The notes beneath the pieces are model-generated. The model saw only the letters and a list, made by a program, of their open reading frames with translations, had not been told where the DNA came from and made no database searches. From a virus: a stretch of 30,280 nucleotides of DNA. Where the stretch lies: the UHGV virus genome UHGV-0139558; one strand, given 5' to 3'. The first letter of the stretch is position 1. Each line of letters starts with the position of its first letter. Made by a program: the position numbers and the translations under genes. This document shows positions 1-17,692 of the stretch, one piece after another.

Positions 1-945
1 AACGATAATTATGAAGAAGCTATAAACAGATTGATTGGCGAATACAATCACTTCTTTGTTCAAAGAACATTCATGGTTATGGTTAATACAATTTTAACAC
101 CGACTCTTAAGAGTGTCCATTATTTGCCAGCAAGTCGTTCGGGTTTGTATCAAGCTCTGAGTGCTTTTGGTCAAATAATTGCAGAGTTATCTAAGAATAG
201 ATCTTTCTTATCAAAAAAAATTGAATTGCCAAGTATATCTGAGCCTGTTAGTGATTACTTCATTAAGTTGTCTGATATTAGAGTTGTTAAACGGAACTAT
301 GAAGATAAGAAATTAAATATCCTTGCCAAAGAAATAGAAGATAAAATATTAGATGGTAGAGTGGAATTTAATCCACAGACAAAACAGCTTCTTTTTTATC
401 CTAATAATACAAATCTTAGATTAGAGTTGTCATCAACATCTTCGATGGTTTCAGAGTTGGCACCTATTGTATCATATTTAAGATACGTGCTTACTAAAGC
501 TGACGAATCGGGTATGAGACGCATCGGAAGCGGGGCTAGGGAATTCAAACGTCCAGAACCTAAACCATTAATTATGATTGAAGAACCAGAAGCTCATTTA
601 CATCCGGAAATTCAAATAAAATTAACAGAGATATTTGCAAAATTAATAGATGCAAATGTTAAACTTATTGTGACATCTCATAGTAATTTTATATTCAACA
701 AGGTTAATAATCTTGTGATTAAGAACACTGCTGAGAACTGCATGACAGGTATCCATAAAAATAATGTATCATCAGTAGTATTTAAAAAGACAGGAACAGG
801 AAGTGTTGCTTTACCGCTAGAAATTGATGAGTTAGGGATTGAGGATAATAACTTTGGCCCAGCTACGAATGAGTTATTTGATGAAAAGATGGATATCTTT
901 CAAACTATAAATGACGAAATGGAAGACGAGGATGGCAAAGAATGA
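1..945 (+). CDS. ABC-type (AAA_15/AAA_21-like) ATPase, C-terminal portion; the reading frame is open to position 1 so the gene starts upstream of the window
   Basis: Frame 1 is open from nt 1. Translation contains a Walker B/D-loop/H-loop block 'LIMIEEPEAHLHPE' typical of OLD/Abi-type ABC ATPases. AT-rich codon usage unlike the phage backbone. 4-bp ATGA overlap with the next gene. Confidence 0.6.
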   Translation, partial: NDNYEEAINRLIGEYNHFFVQRTFMVMVNTILTPTLKSVHYLPASRSGLYQALSAFGQIIAELSKNRSFLSKKIELPSISEPVSDYFIKLSDIRVVKRNYEDKKLNILAKEIEDKILDGRVEFNPQTKQLLFYPNNTNLRLELSSTSSMVSELAPIVSYLRYVLTKADESGMRRIGSGAREFKRPEPKPLIMIEEPEAHLHPEIQIKLTEIFAKLIDANVKLIVTSHSNFIFNKVNNLVIKNTAENCMTGIHKNNVSSVVFKKTGTGSVALPLEIDELGIEDNNFGPATNELFDEKMDIFQTINDEMEDEDGKE

Positions 946-1508
946 TCGAAAAAATTCTTGCAACTCCTGAGTTAACTGCTTTACTTCGTGATGAAGTCGA
1001 AGAAAATAATGTGTTTGTCAAATTGGATGCTGATTTTTATCAGGATAACGGAAAACTAGATTGCCAAAAAATAATCAATCTTTCTGTGGATTCATATTAT
1101 AATTCGCTTCGGTTGCCTATTACACCTCCTTCACCAGATAATATTTTAGTTATTAAGCGAGGGGATAATCGTTTTGCACTTTACATAATTGAGTTGAAGA
1201 ATGTTGCAAAAGTTTCCCGATTAGATGAAGAAAATATACGATGCAAGTATAAGACAGCAGTAGACGATTTCATGCAAGAGCGTTTTTCTGATAGTTTTTT
1301 AAAAGAAGATGTGAAAATTACTGATTTTAATATATGGATTGTATGTAATAGATTCTCTTTTTTAGGGAAAGAACTTACTGATGAACAGTATGCAAAAAAA
1401 GTAATTAATAATGGGGTTATGGAAAAGTTACTACTATCCAAACCTTATAGGTTTAGAGGTAAAATATCTCCTATAACTTTCCAGTTAAGTGGCTCTGAAG
1501 TGTGTTAA
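942..1508 (+). CDS. Hypothetical 188-aa partner protein, translationally coupled to the ATPase; possible PD-(D/E)xK-like nuclease core
   Basis: ATGA start/stop overlap with upstream ATPase. Motif 'GDNRFALYIIELKN' (D ... E-x-K spacing) resembles a restriction-endonuclease-fold active site. AT-rich. Followed by a hairpin terminator. Confidence 0.5.
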   Translation: MIEKILATPELTALLRDEVEENNVFVKLDADFYQDNGKLDCQKIINLSVDSYYNSLRLPITPPSPDNILVIKRGDNRFALYIIELKNVAKVSRLDEENIRCKYKTAVDDFMQERFSDSFLKEDVKITDFNIWIVCNRFSFLGKELTDEQYAKKVINNGVMEKLLLSKPYRFRGKISPITFQLSGSEVC

Positions 1509-1512
1509 AAAG

Positions 1513-1538
1513 TGAGGGGGAGTTTTCCCCCTCATTTT
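1513..1538. terminator. Bidirectional rho-independent terminator between convergent genes
   Basis: Perfect 8-bp stem TGAGGGGG / CCCCCTCA with 6-nt loop, T-run on the plus strand and on the minus strand; the int stop codon lies inside the right arm. Confidence 0.5.
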
Positions 1539-2662
1539 AATTCTAACTTATTCCAATCTTTTCCCCTGTCATCATGGTAACGATCGGTTTGCTGCTGGGT
1601 TTTATGGCCCAGCAGTTTTCTGGTATCTATCCCTTGCTCCTTGTAAAGGCGTTCAGATAAAGATCTTTGTTCATGAAAAGTTGCTGGAGTTCCAGTACCC
1701 CAATCAATTTTTGCCAGATCACGCGCCTTGCTAAAGTTCATCGTTAGTGTATTAGCTTTTACCTGTGCGCCACGTTCAGCCTGTGAGGTTGTGCGAAAAA
1801 AATGTACAAGATATGGACTGACAGCATAGTCACGGCAGCGGGCTACTACATCTCGCAAACTCCAGTTAATCGCATTGAGACGCAGGGAAAGCGGGATGGC
1901 GATTTTGCTCCCAGTTTTTTCCTGGATGACATGGAGATGATCATCCCAAATATCGCTAAATTTCATACGCGAGATATCACCTAACCTCTGACCGGTAACC
2001 AGTGCTAACAGCATGGCATTCCCCATATAACGATGACTGGCATCTGCGATATCAAAGATTTTTTGCCATTCTTCAAGGCTTAACCGTTGTCGGGTAATTT
2101 TTCTTCTGGGCTGTTTGGTCGCTAATGCTGGATTATAGCCAGGAGGGACCTCCCCATAGTGTTGTGCCTCCTTGAATACATCAATTAGAACGGAGCGGAC
2201 TACTTGCGCCATCCTCGGTTGTCCAGCAGTGATATACTCGTCAAGCAATTGTGCTATATCCCTTACATCAACGGATGAAATTAACTTCATTCCTGCTCGT
2301 TCCCTGAGCAAGGATACTGGTTTAGCTTTCTGTTTATAGGTGTTGAGCTTTATATCGCCACTTTTCAGTCTGTCATCCTGGATTGCTTGATAGCGATCTA
2401 ACCAGGTTGACGTTGTGATTGCTTTTCCTTTGCTGGTTGCGATCCTGTCACTGATAGCTAGAATCTGCCGGGTTCTTTGCTCAGCCAGGCGTGTATTGGC
2501 CTCAGTGGCAATAGCAATGGCTTCAGCTTCGTTTGTGCCCAAAGAATGAAACTTCCCGGTCACTGGATGCTTATATCGCCAATAGACTTTATTTACTTTT
2601 CTGCTATAGAGCGGATATAAGTTCGGGACTGAAACATTATTTTTACGTGGTCTGGCTGCCAT
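1532..2662 (-). CDS. int: Tyrosine site-specific integrase, lambda Int family
   Basis: 376 aa; N-terminal arm-binding-like region 'PNLYPLYSRKVNKVYWRYKHPVTGK', C-terminal catalytic region ending '...HEQRSLSERLYKEQ...LLGHKTQQQTDRYHDDRGKDWNKLELK' which parallels lambda Int (R-H-R-Y motifs). 20-bp overlap with xis as in lambda. Confidence 0.9.
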   Translation of the reverse strand: MAARPRKNNVSVPNLYPLYSRKVNKVYWRYKHPVTGKFHSLGTNEAEAIAIATEANTRLAEQRTRQILAISDRIATSKGKAITTSTWLDRYQAIQDDRLKSGDIKLNTYKQKAKPVSLLRERAGMKLISSVDVRDIAQLLDEYITAGQPRMAQVVRSVLIDVFKEAQHYGEVPPGYNPALATKQPRRKITRQRLSLEEWQKIFDIADASHRYMGNAMLLALVTGQRLGDISRMKFSDIWDDHLHVIQEKTGSKIAIPLSLRLNAINWSLRDVVARCRDYAVSPYLVHFFRTTSQAERGAQVKANTLTMNFSKARDLAKIDWGTGTPATFHEQRSLSERLYKEQGIDTRKLLGHKTQQQTDRYHDDRGKDWNKLELK

Positions 2663-2879
2663 TACTTAAAATCCTTTGTAGAATAATAGAATCACTTTTC
2701 TTGATGACAGGAGTAACTAATTCCCCAACTAACTCTGCGTCCTCACGCACTCGCCATAGTCGACCTTGTTTCATTGCCGGTGGACAAAATAAATTCTGCT
2801 TAGCATAACGACGCAATGTGGACACACTTGGAGGATTACTTCTGTATTTTTCCGTAGCCCATTCCTCAAGTGTCAGCAT
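2643..2879 (-). CDS. xis: Excisionase (lambda Xis-like)
   Basis: Translation 'MLTLEEWATEKYRSNPPSVSTLRRYAKQNLFCPPAMKQGRLWRV' resembles lambda Xis 'MYLTLQEW...'. Overlaps the int start. Start chosen at the third in-frame Met to match lambda Xis; the ORF could start as far upstream as 2903. Confidence 0.7.
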   Translation of the reverse strand: MLTLEEWATEKYRSNPPSVSTLRRYAKQNLFCPPAMKQGRLWRVREDAELVGELVTPVIKKSDSIILQRILSNGSQTT

Positions 2880-2931
2880 TTGAAGCATTTTTGATAACCT
2901 CATTTCTTTTGCTACAAAACTATTTCACTAG

Positions 2932-6632: not shown

Positions 6633-7100
6633 TTGAAGAACAACTACCCAGGAAAAAAACTTTATGCACTTGTAAAGGAAATTCTTAAAGATGGTGTTAT
6701 TACTGAAGATGAGAGTTTAACTCTACATAAGGCATTAGTAGACTTCACAGGATGTGACTTGGAAAGTGGGGTGGTGGATGGTTTGGCGACCAGGCTGCCT
6801 ATTGATGTAGGGGCTTCGATAGAGTTAGAGGGTAAAACCTATTGTCTTACAGGCACTTTTGTTGCAGGAAAGAGAGCCGTAGTTGAAAATTTGATTAAAA
6901 ATGCTGGTGGGAACATCAGTAGTGGAATTACTCAAAAGTTGGATTTTTTAGTAATTGGGACGCTTTCCTCCCGTGATTGGAAATTCTCTAGTCACGGAAG
7001 GAAGATCGAAAAGGCTATATCTTATAGGGATGATAATGGTGCAAAACTTAAAATTATTTCTGAAGAAATGCTTTTCGATGCATTACCAAGTTCGCGATGA
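6633..7100 (+). CDS. BRCT-domain protein with N-terminal TerB-like half-motif; same frame as upstream ORF, separated by one TAA
   Basis: C-terminal 'GKTYCLTGTF...GKRAVVENLIKNAGGNISSGITQKLDFLVIG...ISEEMLF' matches the BRCT pattern of LigA C-termini. Listed ORF starts at TTG; frame is open back to the TAA at 6591. Confidence 0.5.
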   Translation: MKNNYPGKKLYALVKEILKDGVITEDESLTLHKALVDFTGCDLESGVVDGLATRLPIDVGASIELEGKTYCLTGTFVAGKRAVVENLIKNAGGNISSGITQKLDFLVIGTLSSRDWKFSSHGRKIEKAISYRDDNGAKLKIISEEMLFDALPSSR

Positions 7101-7769
7101 CCAGAATACCCTACCTATAACATGAATTCTGGCTCGTCTATCTTCAAAGGTGAGTATTTCATCTGGGTACTCATCTTTGTTGAAGCTTCTAAGAATCAAG
7201 CCACCGTCAGGTAAGTTGATAAGTATTTTAACCCTTAGCAATACACCATCTCGTACGGCATAAAGATCGCCATCACGAATAGGAACGGTTTGAGAAATAT
7301 CAACGGCAACAAGATCTCCATTATTGAGAACCGGTAATAAACTGTTCCCCCATATTTGTACGATCTTGGCATTAGATGCACATACGCCAGATTTTCTCAA
7401 ATCTGCTCTTCTTAACGGAAACCAGTCAATAGCTGATTCAACTATTTCAGCCAGACATCCGTTACCTGCCGATAACTCGACATCTAAAACAGGAATGTTT
7501 ACGAAAATATCGGGGTCTAATGCGGTGCTTTCTGCTTCTTTTACAACAAGATCAGGTATGGATGCGTTGTCTTCAATACCAAGTTGTAACCACTTTTGTG
7601 ATACACCTAAAACTTTTGCAATTTCTTTAATTTTGCGCGGTTGTAGAGTTTCGCCATTCTCTATTTTGGCTACAGATTGTTGTGAAAGTCCAATTTTTTC
7701 AGCTAGTTGAGCTTGGCTCATGCCAGCTTTCTCTCTACCTATCTTTAATCGTTCTGCCAGTGTTTTCAC
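7083..7769 (-). CDS. cI: CI-like prophage repressor (HTH_XRE + S24 LexA-like peptidase domain)
   Basis: N-terminal HTH 'MSQAQLAEKIGLSQQSVAKIENGE'; C-terminal S24-like fold; GTG start with AGAGGG RBS; divergent from Cro-like gene across operator repeats. Confidence 0.85.
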   Translation of the reverse strand: MKTLAERLKIGREKAGMSQAQLAEKIGLSQQSVAKIENGETLQPRKIKEIAKVLGVSQKWLQLGIEDNASIPDLVVKEAESTALDPDIFVNIPVLDVELSAGNGCLAEIVESAIDWFPLRRADLRKSGVCASNAKIVQIWGNSLLPVLNNGDLVAVDISQTVPIRDGDLYAVRDGVLLRVKILINLPDGGLILRSFNKDEYPDEILTFEDRRARIHVIGRVFWSSRTW

Positions 7770-13698: not shown

Positions 13699-13715
13699 TT
13701 TGGTGGAGAAAGTTG

Positions 13716-14081
13716 ATGCGTGATATTCAGATGGTTCTGGAGCGTTGGGGAGCATGGGCGGCGAGTGATAGTTCTGGAGTAGACTATTCGCCTATAGCTG
13801 CTGGGTTTAAGGGGCTTCTTCCCTACACAAGCAAAACACGTCAGGCTTGTTCAGATAGTGATGCATTAATTATTGAAGGTTGTCTTGCTCGTCTAAAGCA
13901 AAAAAAGCCAGATGAGCACTCGCTGCTTGTGGCACATTATTTATACAGAATATCCAAGCGTAAGATTGCAAAGGTGCGTGGAAAGGATGAAAAATTGGTA
14001 CGCATAGAAATACAACTAGCTGAAGGATTTATTGATGGTTGCCTTTCAATGTTGGATGTTAACCTTGAAATGGACGCTTAG
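13716..14081 (+). CDS. Q: Late-gene antiterminator Q
   Basis: Begins 'MRDIQMVLERWGAWAA...AAGFKGL' as in enterobacterial Q/Quu antiterminators; GGAG RBS; sits upstream of the lysis cassette. Confidence 0.7.
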   Translation: MRDIQMVLERWGAWAASDSSGVDYSPIAAGFKGLLPYTSKTRQACSDSDALIIEGCLARLKQKKPDEHSLLVAHYLYRISKRKIAKVRGKDEKLVRIEIQLAEGFIDGCLSMLDVNLEMDA

Positions 14082-14116
14082 GGTTGCACAGGTTGGCCCC
14101 ATATGAGGCCAACCTG

Positions 14117-14578
14117 TCACAAGTGGGGGAAGATTTTTCGTAACACTAACCAACACCTTCCGAAGGTATATAGCGAAATTATAAGGGAGGATAAGCCTAA
14201 CAGTATGAATAGGAAATCAATAGGTTTGCCCGCAACAATAACATCATCTGGTAGAAACATCGCTATCAATGGAAATATACATGCGACGATGAGAGTTAAC
14301 CCTGTTGAAAGTAATCGATTTACCAGAGTTGGTAACACGTTGTTTTGCTTAAGGGCATTAATTGCTCCTTCCTTATCGCTGTTTGCACTACTAAATATAG
14401 ATATTGCAGCCAGAACAAAACCAAACAGGATGCCTGATATAGTCGAGAGCACCCCCGCTGTTGTGAGTACGTCAGCATGCTTCATCGGTTTAAACAGTTT
14501 TGTCGCTGCATAGGTCAACAGAATCCAGAGGACGCATTTCCAGAGAAAAGTGGCTAATTCTCTCATTGTGTCCTCCAT
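14117..14578 (-). CDS. Polytopic membrane protein (4 predicted TM helices), second gene of cargo operon (candidate membrane effector)
   Basis: Hydrophobic stretches 'FLWKCVLWILLTYAATKLF', 'VLTTAGVLSTISGILFGFVLAAISIF', 'LSTGLTLIVACIFPLIAMFL', 'IDFLFILLGLSSLIISLYTF'. Confidence 0.55.
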   Translation of the reverse strand: MEDTMRELATFLWKCVLWILLTYAATKLFKPMKHADVLTTAGVLSTISGILFGFVLAAISIFSSANSDKEGAINALKQNNVLPTLVNRLLSTGLTLIVACIFPLIAMFLPDDVIVAGKPIDFLFILLGLSSLIISLYTFGRCWLVLRKIFPHL

Positions 14579-14587
14579 GCTTGGTTA

Positions 14588-15529
14588 TTAGTCTCTGCTA
14601 GCGAGCTCATACTGTGCAAGATAGTTCGCGTTATCAATTTTAGCAGATATCATCGCCGTTCTGATATCAGAATCGGATGGATAACCGCTTTTGACAATGA
14701 TTGTCTTTGTACTGACCAATACTTGGTCAAGTAGACTTTTGGGCGTTCTATTGGATGGCTCTGTTACATCAATTTTTTTAATTTTTAGACCTCCAGAACC
14801 TTTTGGAAAAAGTTCAAGTAGTTCCTTAATAGCATCGGTGACAGAAGTTTTTAGATAGTTAAAACCTTGTTTTTTCGGGCGAATCCGACCTCGCATATTT
14901 AATCTTAGATGCGACCCGCCCATACCAACAACCATGTCAATAATTTCATTAGCTAAAGGGTTTTTAATCTTATAATTAGCTTTGTTAAAGTTTCTTGGAG
15001 CAGCAACTATAAGATCGAAACTACGTAGGATATTTCCGTCCTCAAGCAGTTCCTTCATGCTCTCTTGTTTCCAAATGGCTTCAAAAGTGACGCTTTTTAA
15101 ATCAGTTTTGTTATACAAAATGAATGCCAGATCATTTACTTTGGGCCCTATATGGTTGAGGGTCATAGCTAATAAGTCCGTTTCGTAGTAATAGATAAAA
15201 TATGTTCTTTCAACTACAGAATCTTTATCATTTAAAGGAATTGTTCTCTCACTACCTGTAGCATCCTCGATGAACGGTAGTAGGCATTCCCTTCTCCACG
15301 ATACGTAACCAAAGTAACATTGCAGTGTGGTATCTTTTTGAAGAATAACTAACTTTAACCCTCGATTTGGGGTGTCTGTTGTGTAAGTTATTGGAAAAGT
15401 TACAGTATCTGCTGTGGTCATTTGCTCAAAGGCTAGTTTTGCAGCAGATGTGCCATCTTTTTTGCTTCCATTACCAGTGAAAAAACCAACTCTCACTCGC
15501 CTAGTTTTATTCTTATTTTCTGTACTCAT
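14588..15529 (-). CDS. Hypothetical 313-aa soluble protein, first gene of reverse-oriented AT-rich cargo operon (candidate defense/exclusion component)
   Basis: Long ORF in a locally AT-rich segment between Q and the holin gene; no recognisable catalytic motif; 9-nt gap to downstream membrane gene. Confidence 0.55.
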   Translation of the reverse strand: MSTENKNKTRRVRVGFFTGNGSKKDGTSAAKLAFEQMTTADTVTFPITYTTDTPNRGLKLVILQKDTTLQCYFGYVSWRRECLLPFIEDATGSERTIPLNDKDSVVERTYFIYYYETDLLAMTLNHIGPKVNDLAFILYNKTDLKSVTFEAIWKQESMKELLEDGNILRSFDLIVAAPRNFNKANYKIKNPLANEIIDMVVGMGGSHLRLNMRGRIRPKKQGFNYLKTSVTDAIKELLELFPKGSGGLKIKKIDVTEPSNRTPKSLLDQVLVSTKTIIVKSGYPSDSDIRTAMISAKIDNANYLAQYELASRD

Positions 15530-15651
15530 TATCGATCCGAAATAATTTTAGCAACCGTGTGAAAAATACAACAAAAAAAAGAGGAAATCATTAGCGCGGT
15601 CCGCAAAAAACATTGTAATCTGTTAAGAGTGGTTACTTCGCCACACAGCTT

Positions 15652-15680
15652 AAACCCGCCGTCGAGCGGGTTTTGTCGTT
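15652..15680 (+). terminator. Candidate late-region terminator (tR'-like) upstream of lysis genes
   Basis: Stem AAACCCGC / GCGGGTTT, loop CGTCGA, then TTTTGTCGTTTC; lies in a 290-bp noncoding region before the holin gene. Confidence 0.4.
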
Positions 15681-15825
15681 TCTGTGGCTGGGGATTCGTT
15701 GGTCCTGGCCTATTCCGCAGTTCTCCATCGGTTCGGCTTCTTTGATGTTTCCGCTTCTGATTTGCGGTACATGATGTTCCCTCAATTTGCACCTGCTGTA
15801 TCAGCGAGGTGAGAGATAACTACAA

Positions 15826-17141: not shown

Positions 17142-17206
17142 AAGGACCTGTAATTTCATAGAGATGATTCCATGTTAATATTGCTTCTTTAACTGGAGGC
17201 ATATTG

Positions 17207-17692
17207 ATGGATTGGAATATGTGGTCTGCTATTGGGGCTTGTGGTTCGGCTATCGCGTCTTTATGGGCGTTGTGTTATGCACGCAAGGCGTTAAACACAT
17301 GGAATAGACAAGAGCAATTTAAAGTAAAGTTAGAGTTTAAACGAGCTTTACTTGAGCTGGAGGATGCCTTTGAGGCAATGCCCGATAATTGGAATTCCAC
17401 ACAATACAGAATAGCTAGAACAAGAGTTGAACAGCAGTATAATGCTGTTGTTCACCGAGTTGATGATGCAGCACAGCTATATTTCAAGAAAGAAAACCTT
17501 AAATCAGCATACCAGAATGCAGTGAGAGCATGGGTTTTATGTGAAGGGGGGATTAAAGATAAAAGTATACATGCTGAATGGAAACAACTCAGGACTGATT
17601 ATAGTCAATATATTATGACTGGTGGAAATAAAAAGTGCTACTTATCAAAAATAGAAAAAATATATTCTAGAATTGTCGTGTTCATAGATTGA
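17207..17692 (+). CDS. Membrane-anchored hypothetical protein (single N-terminal TM), AT-rich moron
   Basis: GGAGG RBS 8 nt upstream; N-terminal 'WSAIGACGSAIASLWALCYA' hydrophobic helix; AT-rich; between lysis cassette and HNH/terminase. Confidence 0.5.
   Translation: MDWNMWSAIGACGSAIASLWALCYARKALNTWNRQEQFKVKLEFKRALLELEDAFEAMPDNWNSTQYRIARTRVEQQYNAVVHRVDDAAQLYFKKENLKSAYQNAVRAWVLCEGGIKDKSIHAEWKQLRTDYSQYIMTGGNKKCYLSKIEKIYSRIVVFID

Follow-up and report, generated by a model that had tools for sequence, protein, structure and literature searches.

A two-gene cassette between the antiterminator Q gene and the late-promoter region of a lambdoid prophage is a probable, highly diverged relative of the RexAB phage-exclusion system

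The virus genome UHGV-0139558 was analyzed over its entire 30,280 nucleotides (the window), which represent a lambdoid, e14/SfV-like prophage, from the integrase through the tape measure gene. Between the antiterminator gene Q and the lysis genes lie two minus-strand open reading frames (ORFs), 9 nt apart at the longest reading of the second (Table 1), the first encoding a soluble protein (A) and the second a small protein with four transmembrane (TM) segments (B). What does such a pair do in a prophage? A soluble protein coupled to a 4-TM protein is the arrangement of RexAB of phage lambda, the oldest known phage-exclusion system, the mechanism of which is unresolved. Here we show that the cassette very probably belongs to the RexAB superfamily; the fuller reading, in which this highly diverged member acts as a prophage-borne phage-exclusion module of the abortive-infection type, is probable. 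The evidence consists of the fold and profile homology between A and RexA, the RexB-likeness of B, the pairing and co-divergence of A-then-B, and the location in an accessory position where cassettes appear to be swapped.

The layout of the locus is as described in the original prediction, which was made from the sequence alone: a reverse two-gene operon between Q and the lysis cassette, the latter consisting, on the side facing the pair, of a lambda-family holin followed by endolysin and Rz. The local AT-richness was borne out as well, with 38.9% GC in the cassette vs 49.2% in the window (local values of 0.36-0.44 vs 0.50-0.59 in the flanks). Protein A has no hydrophobic segment (hydropathy, maximum KD19 0.86). 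For the second gene, a product of 153 aa starting 9 nt downstream of A had been proposed; the ORF is there, but its product most likely comprises 149 aa from M5, judging from the sequence, which leaves a 21-nt spacer. This start, the second ATG at 14566, was chosen because B homologs are 145-149 aa long, the RefSeq annotation gives 450 nt, and a GGAGGA Shine-Dalgarno sequence precedes it (Table 1). At these distances A and B are, from their sequence, translationally close-coupled.

Direct scans of A and B against Pfam, PADLOC 2.0 and NCBIfam yielded no meaningful match, and the earlier statement that the 313-aa protein carries no recognizable motif is correct at this level. PHROGs assigns the two proteins to its families 7651 and 8552, neither of which has a known function. 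The relationship of A to RexA is found at the level of structure and of broad profiles. For the AlphaFold2 (AF2) model of A (predicted local distance difference test score, pLDDT, 72.7; predicted template modeling score, pTM, 0.64), lambda RexA is the top structural match in the PDB, on which two search methods agree; in the Foldseek search of the PDB it is the sole match at E<=1e-3 (1.1e-6, probability 1.0, full-length), with RdgC next. RdgC, Iml3 and Chl4 are listed as structural neighbors of RexA itself in the paper describing the RexA structure. In the model, strands and helices follow one another as in RexA and RdgC, where a globular domain is split by the insertion of a second (dimerization) domain. 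The global TM-score is low, 0.33-0.36, as would be expected if the two domains are hinged and differ in their relative orientation.

In the profile comparison, a broad A profile (176 sequences; effective number of sequences, Neff, 6.9) was aligned to the RexA family by hhalign with a probability of 87.3%, an E-value of 3.8e-6 and a score of 46.9. The alignment is collinear and full-length, with A 13-308 matched to RexA 2-270 over 255 columns, and the controls (the reversed profile and 30 column shuffles) reached scores of at most 22.8 and probabilities of at most 2.3%. The broad profile was needed for this result, as the close family gave no significant hhalign match to the single RexA sequence. 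A hidden Markov model (HMM) search of PDB sequences with the A family profile gave no match even at E<=10. Sequence identity to lambda RexA and RexB is about 12-13%. As positive controls, lambda RexA scores 1e-97 with the Pfam and 9e-110 with the PADLOC model, and lambda RexA and RexB match the library RexA and RexB models at 1e-97 to 9e-61. By profile and by predicted structure, A is a remote homolog of RexA with the RexA/RdgC fold; this fold and a basic isoelectric point (pI) of 9.3 suggest that A may bind DNA. No confident homology of the 313-aa protein to a structural or metabolic family was found.

Protein B resembles lambda RexB in length (149 vs 144 aa), pI (9.4 vs 9.3), topology (4 TM in both) and position directly after the soluble gene. 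Hydropathy and the AF2 model (pLDDT 79.5; helices 2-24, 30-60, 77-104 and 116-145) both return the four hydrophobic helices noted before. BLASTP of B against lambda RexB found nothing; hhalign of the B family profile against RexB gave a probability of 51%, an E-value of 1.5e-4 and a score of 31.2, with 40 column shuffles at or below 18.4. B 16-82 is aligned to RexB 20-85, such that the end of TM1, an H-x-D motif, TM2 and the central loop fall at equivalent positions. In the family alignment of B, TM2 is strongly conserved (AGVLST-SGILFGFVLAAISIFSS), and the central loop holds an invariant L72-K73; central-loop mutations eliminate the defense conferred by Sbash gp31, a RexB-like effector whose function has been validated (PMC6426596). 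Several sequences bridge the two families. A Vibrio homolog of B (31% identical to the window protein) matches the PADLOC RexB model with an E-value of 1.6e-4, its residues 9-104 aligning to model positions 7-103 of 141, and a small RexB HMM was positive for 10 of 10 distant partner proteins (up to 18.9 bits, E 6.5e-6, in long collinear alignments), with four unrelated 4-TM proteins at 1 bit or less. When the B model was compared with the predicted viral structures of BFVD, there was no match at E<=1e-3; the second-best viral structural match (probability 1.0, TM 0.5) is a 165-aa Sbash protein, the same length as gp31. These sequence comparisons make homology of B to RexB likely but not proven. 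The Rex-like exclusion architecture had been proposed together with the remark that sequence similarity could not be established by eye; for A, this similarity has now been found in the form of remote homology, and for B such homology is likely.

The pairing of the two genes extends over a large family. An exhaustive HMMER profile search of 1.84 billion representatives joins the relatives of A and Pfam DUF6731 (PF20505) in a single family, which comprises just 170 clusters (50% identity) at E<=1e-3. The PF20505 model matches 18 of the 27 aligned members of the A family (best 1e-11), the non-matching window protein being counted among the 27, so that the latter is placed in DUF6731 by transitive homology of sequences, at its periphery. 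The exact locus is present in 73 of 5426 complete E. coli genomes, with both genes annotated 'hypothetical protein', and a 45%-identical allele (orf54/orf53 of phage cdtI) in 25 further ones, where the first gene bears the RefSeq name 'DUF6731 family protein'; taken together, about 2% of complete E. coli genomes contain the branch. In E. coli, Pectobacterium, Yersinia and the inducible phage cdtI, pairs with 44-49% identity are found at this same position, convergent with a Q gene of the PF06530 family and immediately downstream of it, in combination with varying lysis and packaging modules; of the two Pectobacterium loci, one (L006) has no called B gene. Two A homologs in Escherichia phage records (ON470608.1, 30277-31179; ON470622.1, 15473-16375) are labeled 'portal (connector) protein', almost certainly a mis-annotation.

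Beyond the Enterobacterales, a PM2-like (Vinavirales) prophage of Vibrio cyclitrophicus carries, adjoining the integrase gene, homologs of A (hhalign 100%, 35% identity) and B (31%); the Vibrio A protein has no relatives in IMG/VR. On this sequence evidence, the cassette crosses virus realms, being found in tailed and PM2-like prophages. Each of the ten complete loci from the distant DUF6731 branch (an Acidiferrobacterales metagenome-assembled genome, Sulfuritalea, Halomonas, Mariprofundaceae, Magnetococcus, Neptuniibacter, Amphritea and Parathalassolituus) has an A-like gene followed by a same-strand ORF of 146-175 aa with about 4 TM segments, and these partners match the HMM of the window B family at 5e-17 to 2.5e-5. 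In Neptuniibacter, Amphritea and Parathalassolituus, A and B lie between genes that, by eye and from their N-termini, resemble those for Mu F/G-type head morphogenesis and Mu I-like protease proteins. The branch also includes members from Serratia, Salmonella and Zetaproteobacteria, and the element types comprise tailed, Mu-like and PM2-like prophages. The gap between A and B ranges from -1 to +23 nt in five diverged loci, and the similarity of A to the window protein is correlated with that of B (Spearman 0.74, p 0.0016, for 15 non-independent loci). Together, DUF6731 and its near-obligate 4-TM partner suggest a diverged branch of RexAB. Searches of the literature with DUF6731 and the RefSeq accessions retrieved no mention of either, and both the DUF6731-RexA link and the family-wide 4-TM partner appear to be unrecorded in the literature searched. 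The original prediction of an undescribed system holds in part: this family member appears to be new, and two-gene abortive modules of the RexAB type were already known. That the pair is decaying or selfish cargo without a current function is scarcely credible: the 'hypothetical' annotations and the lack of a direct family match could be taken that way, but homologs ranging from 99% to only about 20% identity, in many taxa and types of element, all retain both ORFs undamaged and with invariant motifs.

Several observations weigh against placing the cassette with RexAB or against an exclusion function. The window A protein matches neither the Pfam (PF15969) or PADLOC RexA models nor the DUF6731 HMM at E<=1, and window B matches neither PF15968 nor the PADLOC RexB HMM. 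When the close enterobacterial family alone is compared with RexA, just a 'GPxxxDL' segment is aligned (E 0.034, not significant), and R219 and K221, with which RexA contacts DNA, have no conserved counterparts in the alignment with A. The profile match of B to RexB is local and its probability just 51%, and lambda RexB does not rank among the best 50 structural matches of the B model in BFVD. Locus and regulation differ from those of canonical rexAB, which always follows cI; a consensus scan detected no strong sigma-70 site upstream of A; and the function of this family member is a prediction from homology.

If the cassette functions as a Rex-type exclusion module, A would be a cytoplasmic protein of the RexA/RdgC fold, probably a dimer, binding DNA or a phage replication or protein-DNA intermediate, and B a RexB-like four-helix inner-membrane protein, probably oligomerizing to a pore or ion channel. 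The lysogen would express the operon from a promoter of its own, reading divergently from the late promoter pR' and convergently with Q. Infection by a susceptible phage would trigger A, which would activate B; the membrane would be depolarized or permeabilized, ATP would fall, and the infected cell would arrest or die ahead of completion of the invader's cycle. We infer the anti-phage function by analogy with Rex, and the same holds for expression in the lysogen, DNA binding, the A-B interaction, depolarization, the abortive outcome and the target phages. Defense without abortion, through a block of DNA entry of the superinfection exclusion (Sie) type or a Kiwa-like response without cell killing, is unlikely but has some points of contact with the data. 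In Kiwa, the 4-TM sensor KwaA detects phage attachment and the soluble KwaB binds the incoming DNA, so that the cell is spared, and a 4-TM protein paired with a protein of about 310 aa with a DNA-binding fold fits this outline; besides, whether activated Rex leads to death or to a reversible arrest is itself a matter of debate. For Kiwa (KwaB DUF4868, KwaA), no match was found with PADLOC, which presumably includes Kiwa models, or with Pfam, and the gene order is soluble-first in A/B vs membrane-first in Kiwa.

The position of the cassette bears on the remaining alternatives. Immediately beyond the upstream region of A lies a boundary element (Table 1) that holds a stretch kept in all alleles from E. 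coli, Pectobacterium and Yersinia (...ATTAGCGCGGTCCGCAAAAA...TAAGAGTGGTTAC...) and a tR'-like terminator hairpin at 15652-15673 with a T-run (a terminator-like site call; fold -22.4 kcal/mol). The element matches Q-proximal regions of many lambdoid and Stx2 phages, and many of the E. coli matches stop at window position 15674, right at this hairpin. From its position and conservation, it is best read as the pR'/qut/tR' region, which would place the cassette upstream of the late promoter and outside the control of Q. The pair had been assigned to the slot in which lambdoid phages carry Shiga toxin; this is imprecise. In an Stx2a phage, the stx genes follow a conserved 85-bp late-promoter/terminator element that corresponds to window 15591-15675, and the present cassette precedes it, between Q and the element. 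The order in an Stx2a phage is Q, a reverse two-gene cassette, the boundary element, a methylase gene, tRNA genes and stxAB.

Given that the cassette adjoins the genes for holin, endolysin and spanin, it could be seen as a lysis accessory, that is, a holin, an antiholin or a regulator of lysis timing. This is most improbable: the pair runs against the direction of the late operon and precedes pR'/tR', the Pfam scan gave no match to a holin family, the linked lysis cassettes differ, and the pair also occurs in elements far from lysis genes. A role in prophage development is quite unlikely, too; by analogy with lambda, A, which is placed back to back with the late promoter, would modulate late transcription or commitment to lysis, and B would anchor it to the membrane or modulate it. 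In the Enterobacterales loci, the cassette is always directly downstream of a PF06530-type Q, being tied to this one Q type and located within about 100 bp of the conserved late-promoter element, and lambda RexA is reported to have a RexB-independent role in the bistable switch (PMC11077077), where it binds DNA and biases CI/Cro towards lytic growth. Against such a role, the same pair is found, with no Q nearby, next to the integrase in the PM2-like Vibrio element, in Mu-like head regions and next to P4-type integrases; close relatives carry unrelated cassettes in the slot, which marks the pair as dispensable cargo; and RexApp of Pseudomonas putida is apparently not needed for repressor control (PMC12894663).

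The RexAB-like reading further draws on what occupies this position in related phages. Homology to the close relative SfII, a Shigella phage, ends at window position 13759 and resumes at 15592, so that the variable block comprises the Q allele and the cassette, including about 60 nt upstream of A. The corresponding slot of SfII (NC_021857, 834-2448) holds the reverse genes SfII_50 (340 aa, soluble) and SfII_49 (194 aa, multi-TM), the products of which match PADLOC PDC-M53A/B at 2e-32 and 3e-54; this cassette has 32% GC and is present in 9 of the 5426 complete E. coli genomes, and all relatives of PDC-M53A in IMG/VR are identical. A third cassette, in the Stx2a phage WGPS2 (NC_049941, 1889-3452), consists of the reverse genes for gp27 (343 aa, soluble) and gp26 (179 aa, 4 TM), with 38% GC and no PADLOC match, and may represent an undescribed defense candidate in Shiga-toxin phages. 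All three are AT-rich (32-39% GC), reverse-oriented and mutually unrelated in BLASTP and hhalign comparisons; A and B do not match the PDC-M53A/B HMMs of PADLOC. The possibility that SfII_50/49 or gp27/26 are alleles of A/B was rejected, as hhalign and BLASTP show them to be unrelated to both A/B and RexA/RexB. The AT-rich block, with PDC-M53 and the third cassette in the same slot, is an accessory or defense gene context.

A more far-reaching reading treats the Q/pR' junction as a dedicated swap-slot for abortive modules composed of a soluble sensor and a 4-TM effector, of which at least three types without sequence relationship (the DUF6731 type, PDC-M53 and gp27/gp26) are found there. On induction, transcription through Q would silence the convergent cassette by antisense or collision, and this silencing would spare the prophage suicide from its own replication, analogously to the pRM/pLIT control of rexAB in lambda. 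As a corollary, DUF6731 and its partner would form a large unrecognized RexAB branch across Proteobacteria and virus realms. Taken as a whole, with self-silencing and corollary included, this reading is tentative and on balance doubtful.

At the two ends of the cassette, additional elements were located (Table 1). The region upstream of A is not conserved between alleles, whereas the adjoining flank is; a putative extended -10 (TGcTAAAAT, 15553-15545) and TTGTTG/TTGTAT at 15574-15566 can be read in it, and a promoter for A at this plausible extended -10 is assumed. The hairpin between the convergent genes folds with -27.3 kcal/mol on the minus strand (z -5.95) and -21.5 kcal/mol on the plus strand (z -3.15), has no U-tract on either strand and was not called by the terminator scan; it could possibly be a 3'-end, a bidirectional transcription barrier, a terminator, a stabilizer of RNA 3'-ends or a recombination boundary. 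Rfam and tRNA scans of the window gave no match.

Table 1. Features of the cassette and its surroundings in the window, and the related gene pair of a Vibrio prophage.
Feature	Coordinates	Strand	Sequence	Description
Gene A	14588..15529	(-)	window	313 aa, soluble, basic (pI 9.3), RexA-like; putative DNA-binding sensor; periphery of Pfam DUF6731
Intercistronic spacer	14567..14587	(-)	window	21 nt; GGAGGA ribosome-binding site for B at 14576-14571, from sequence
Gene B	14117..14566	(-)	window	149 aa, 4 TM; ORF reaches 14578 (153 aa); RexB-like putative pore or ion-channel effector
Antiterminator Q	13713..14081	(+)	window	Pfam PF06530, 7.7e-52; convergent with the cassette
Hairpin	14084..14122		window	13-bp stem between the convergent Q and B stop codons; overlaps the B stop
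A upstream region	15530..15591	(-)	window	allele-specific, AT-rich; divergent from the late promoter region
Boundary element	15592..15682	(+)	window	putative late-promoter/Q-utilization region; palindrome GCGGTCCGC; not part of the cassette
Vibrio A+B pair	1389-2896		Vibrio phage 10N.286.54.F4_PE001, PQ189356	PM2-like, double jelly-roll element

Other cargo genes were observed in the window and in related loci. Both Pectobacterium loci encode an Endonuclease_NS protein (PF01223) between A and the holin genes (L005, 4843-5691; L006, 2852-3712), co-oriented with the late genes, which represents separate cargo in a slot downstream of the late promoter. An AT-rich island (GC 0.34-0.42) in the window between the Rz/spanin and HNH/terminase genes (17204-17692, plus strand) encodes a 162-aa product, possibly another moron, that has a hydrophobic segment at its N-terminus and matches nothing in Pfam or PADLOC. 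To the left of the integrase gene (1532-2662, minus strand), positions 31-1508 (plus strand) encode an AAA_15/AAA_21 ATPase, truncated by the start of the window, that matches PD-T4-4_A, NsnB, AriA and GajA-type models, and the next ORF codes for 188 aa; in E. coli, the genes of the homologous locus are annotated as 'AAA family ATPase' and 'RloB family protein'. The two look like a defense-type pair just outside the prophage integrase.

A 2026 paper puts the number of described Rex-like systems at only about five. The present analysis adds to these the DUF6731-RexA link, the family-wide 4-TM partner, the spread across realms and the swap-slot between Q and pR'. If these additions hold, the comparative material on how RexA-like sensors gate RexB-like channels would grow considerably, in the form of invariant motifs, co-varying pairs and natural chimeras. 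Defense-annotation tools would then be missing a cassette family, as PADLOC 2.0 also misses the validated Sbash gp30/gp31, and the Q/pR' junction, adjacent to the Shiga-toxin slot but distinct from it, would be a site to look for defense cassettes in prophages of pathogenic E. coli and Shigella.

Among the known systems closest to the cassette is lambda RexA/RexB (PF15969/PF15968; PDB 8TWQ), in which RexA dimerizes and binds DNA non-specifically, RexB depolarizes the membrane, and superinfecting phages such as T4 rII are excluded. In both, a soluble gene is followed by a coupled 4-TM gene in a prophage. For A, the likeness includes the RexA/RdgC-like fold and the full-length profile alignment, and for B size, pI, topology, the collinear match over H-x-D, TM2 and central loop, and the bridging homologs. 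The differences are that A is 34 aa longer than RexA and the window proteins fail the Pfam and PADLOC models, and that rexAB is located in the immunity region after cI under pRM/pLIT control, whereas the cassette is reversed and lies between Q and pR'. Five diverged canonical loci all read cI, rexA, rexB; the cassette is not next to cI, the CI-like gene of the window (7083-7769) being about 6.3 kb away. Compared with Pfam DUF6731 (PF20505), the likeness consists in the 45%-identical E. coli allele bearing this name, and the difference in the window protein having no match.

Two further systems have been recognized as RexAB-like by fold similarity and validated, RexABpp of the P. putida prophage P1 (PP_5643/PP_5644; Sci Rep 2026; PMC12894663) and Sucellos (SclA/SclB) of the V. 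cholerae superintegron, identified as VCA0367-0368 in the primer list (bioRxiv 10.1101/2024.07.02.601686). The likeness to Sucellos, by description only, lies in two genes with predicted RexAB-like structures and no Pfam RexA/RexB match. Sucellos has its own promoter, requires both genes and acts abortively. Most of its homologs come from prophages of enterobacteria, and Vibrio is represented in the present family, too. Rather than to this family, Sucellos may correspond to the SfII-type PDC-M53 cassette, a circumstantial suggestion from strains of S. Enteritidis for which DefenseFinder Sucellos (~98%) and PADLOC PDC-M53 were both reported (PMC13656390).

The Rex-like systems of actinobacteriophages (Sbash gp30/gp31, CarolAnn gp44/gp43 and Butters gp30/gp31) share with the cassette the prophage-expressed combination of a soluble and a 4-TM protein and differ in their larger soluble components of 337-372 aa. 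The gp30/gp31 pair of the Mycobacterium phage Sbash (KP027201, 4934-6509) has no Pfam or PADLOC 2.0 match, and hhalign of the single sequences detected no profile similarity to A, B or lambda RexA/RexB; current libraries thus overlook Rex-like systems systematically. The Sbash pair, like A/B, is located beside the lysis cassette, just after it, rather than next to the repressor, and the 165-aa protein of gp31 length is among the best matches of the B model. For Sbash gp30/31 and CarolAnn gp44/43, exclusion was validated and the systems were recognized without family-level sequence similarity (PMC6426596). Sbash gp30/31, with no profile similarity here, and Sucellos, both no more similar to RexA than A is, proved to be real defenses and are precedents in favor of the Rex-like reading.

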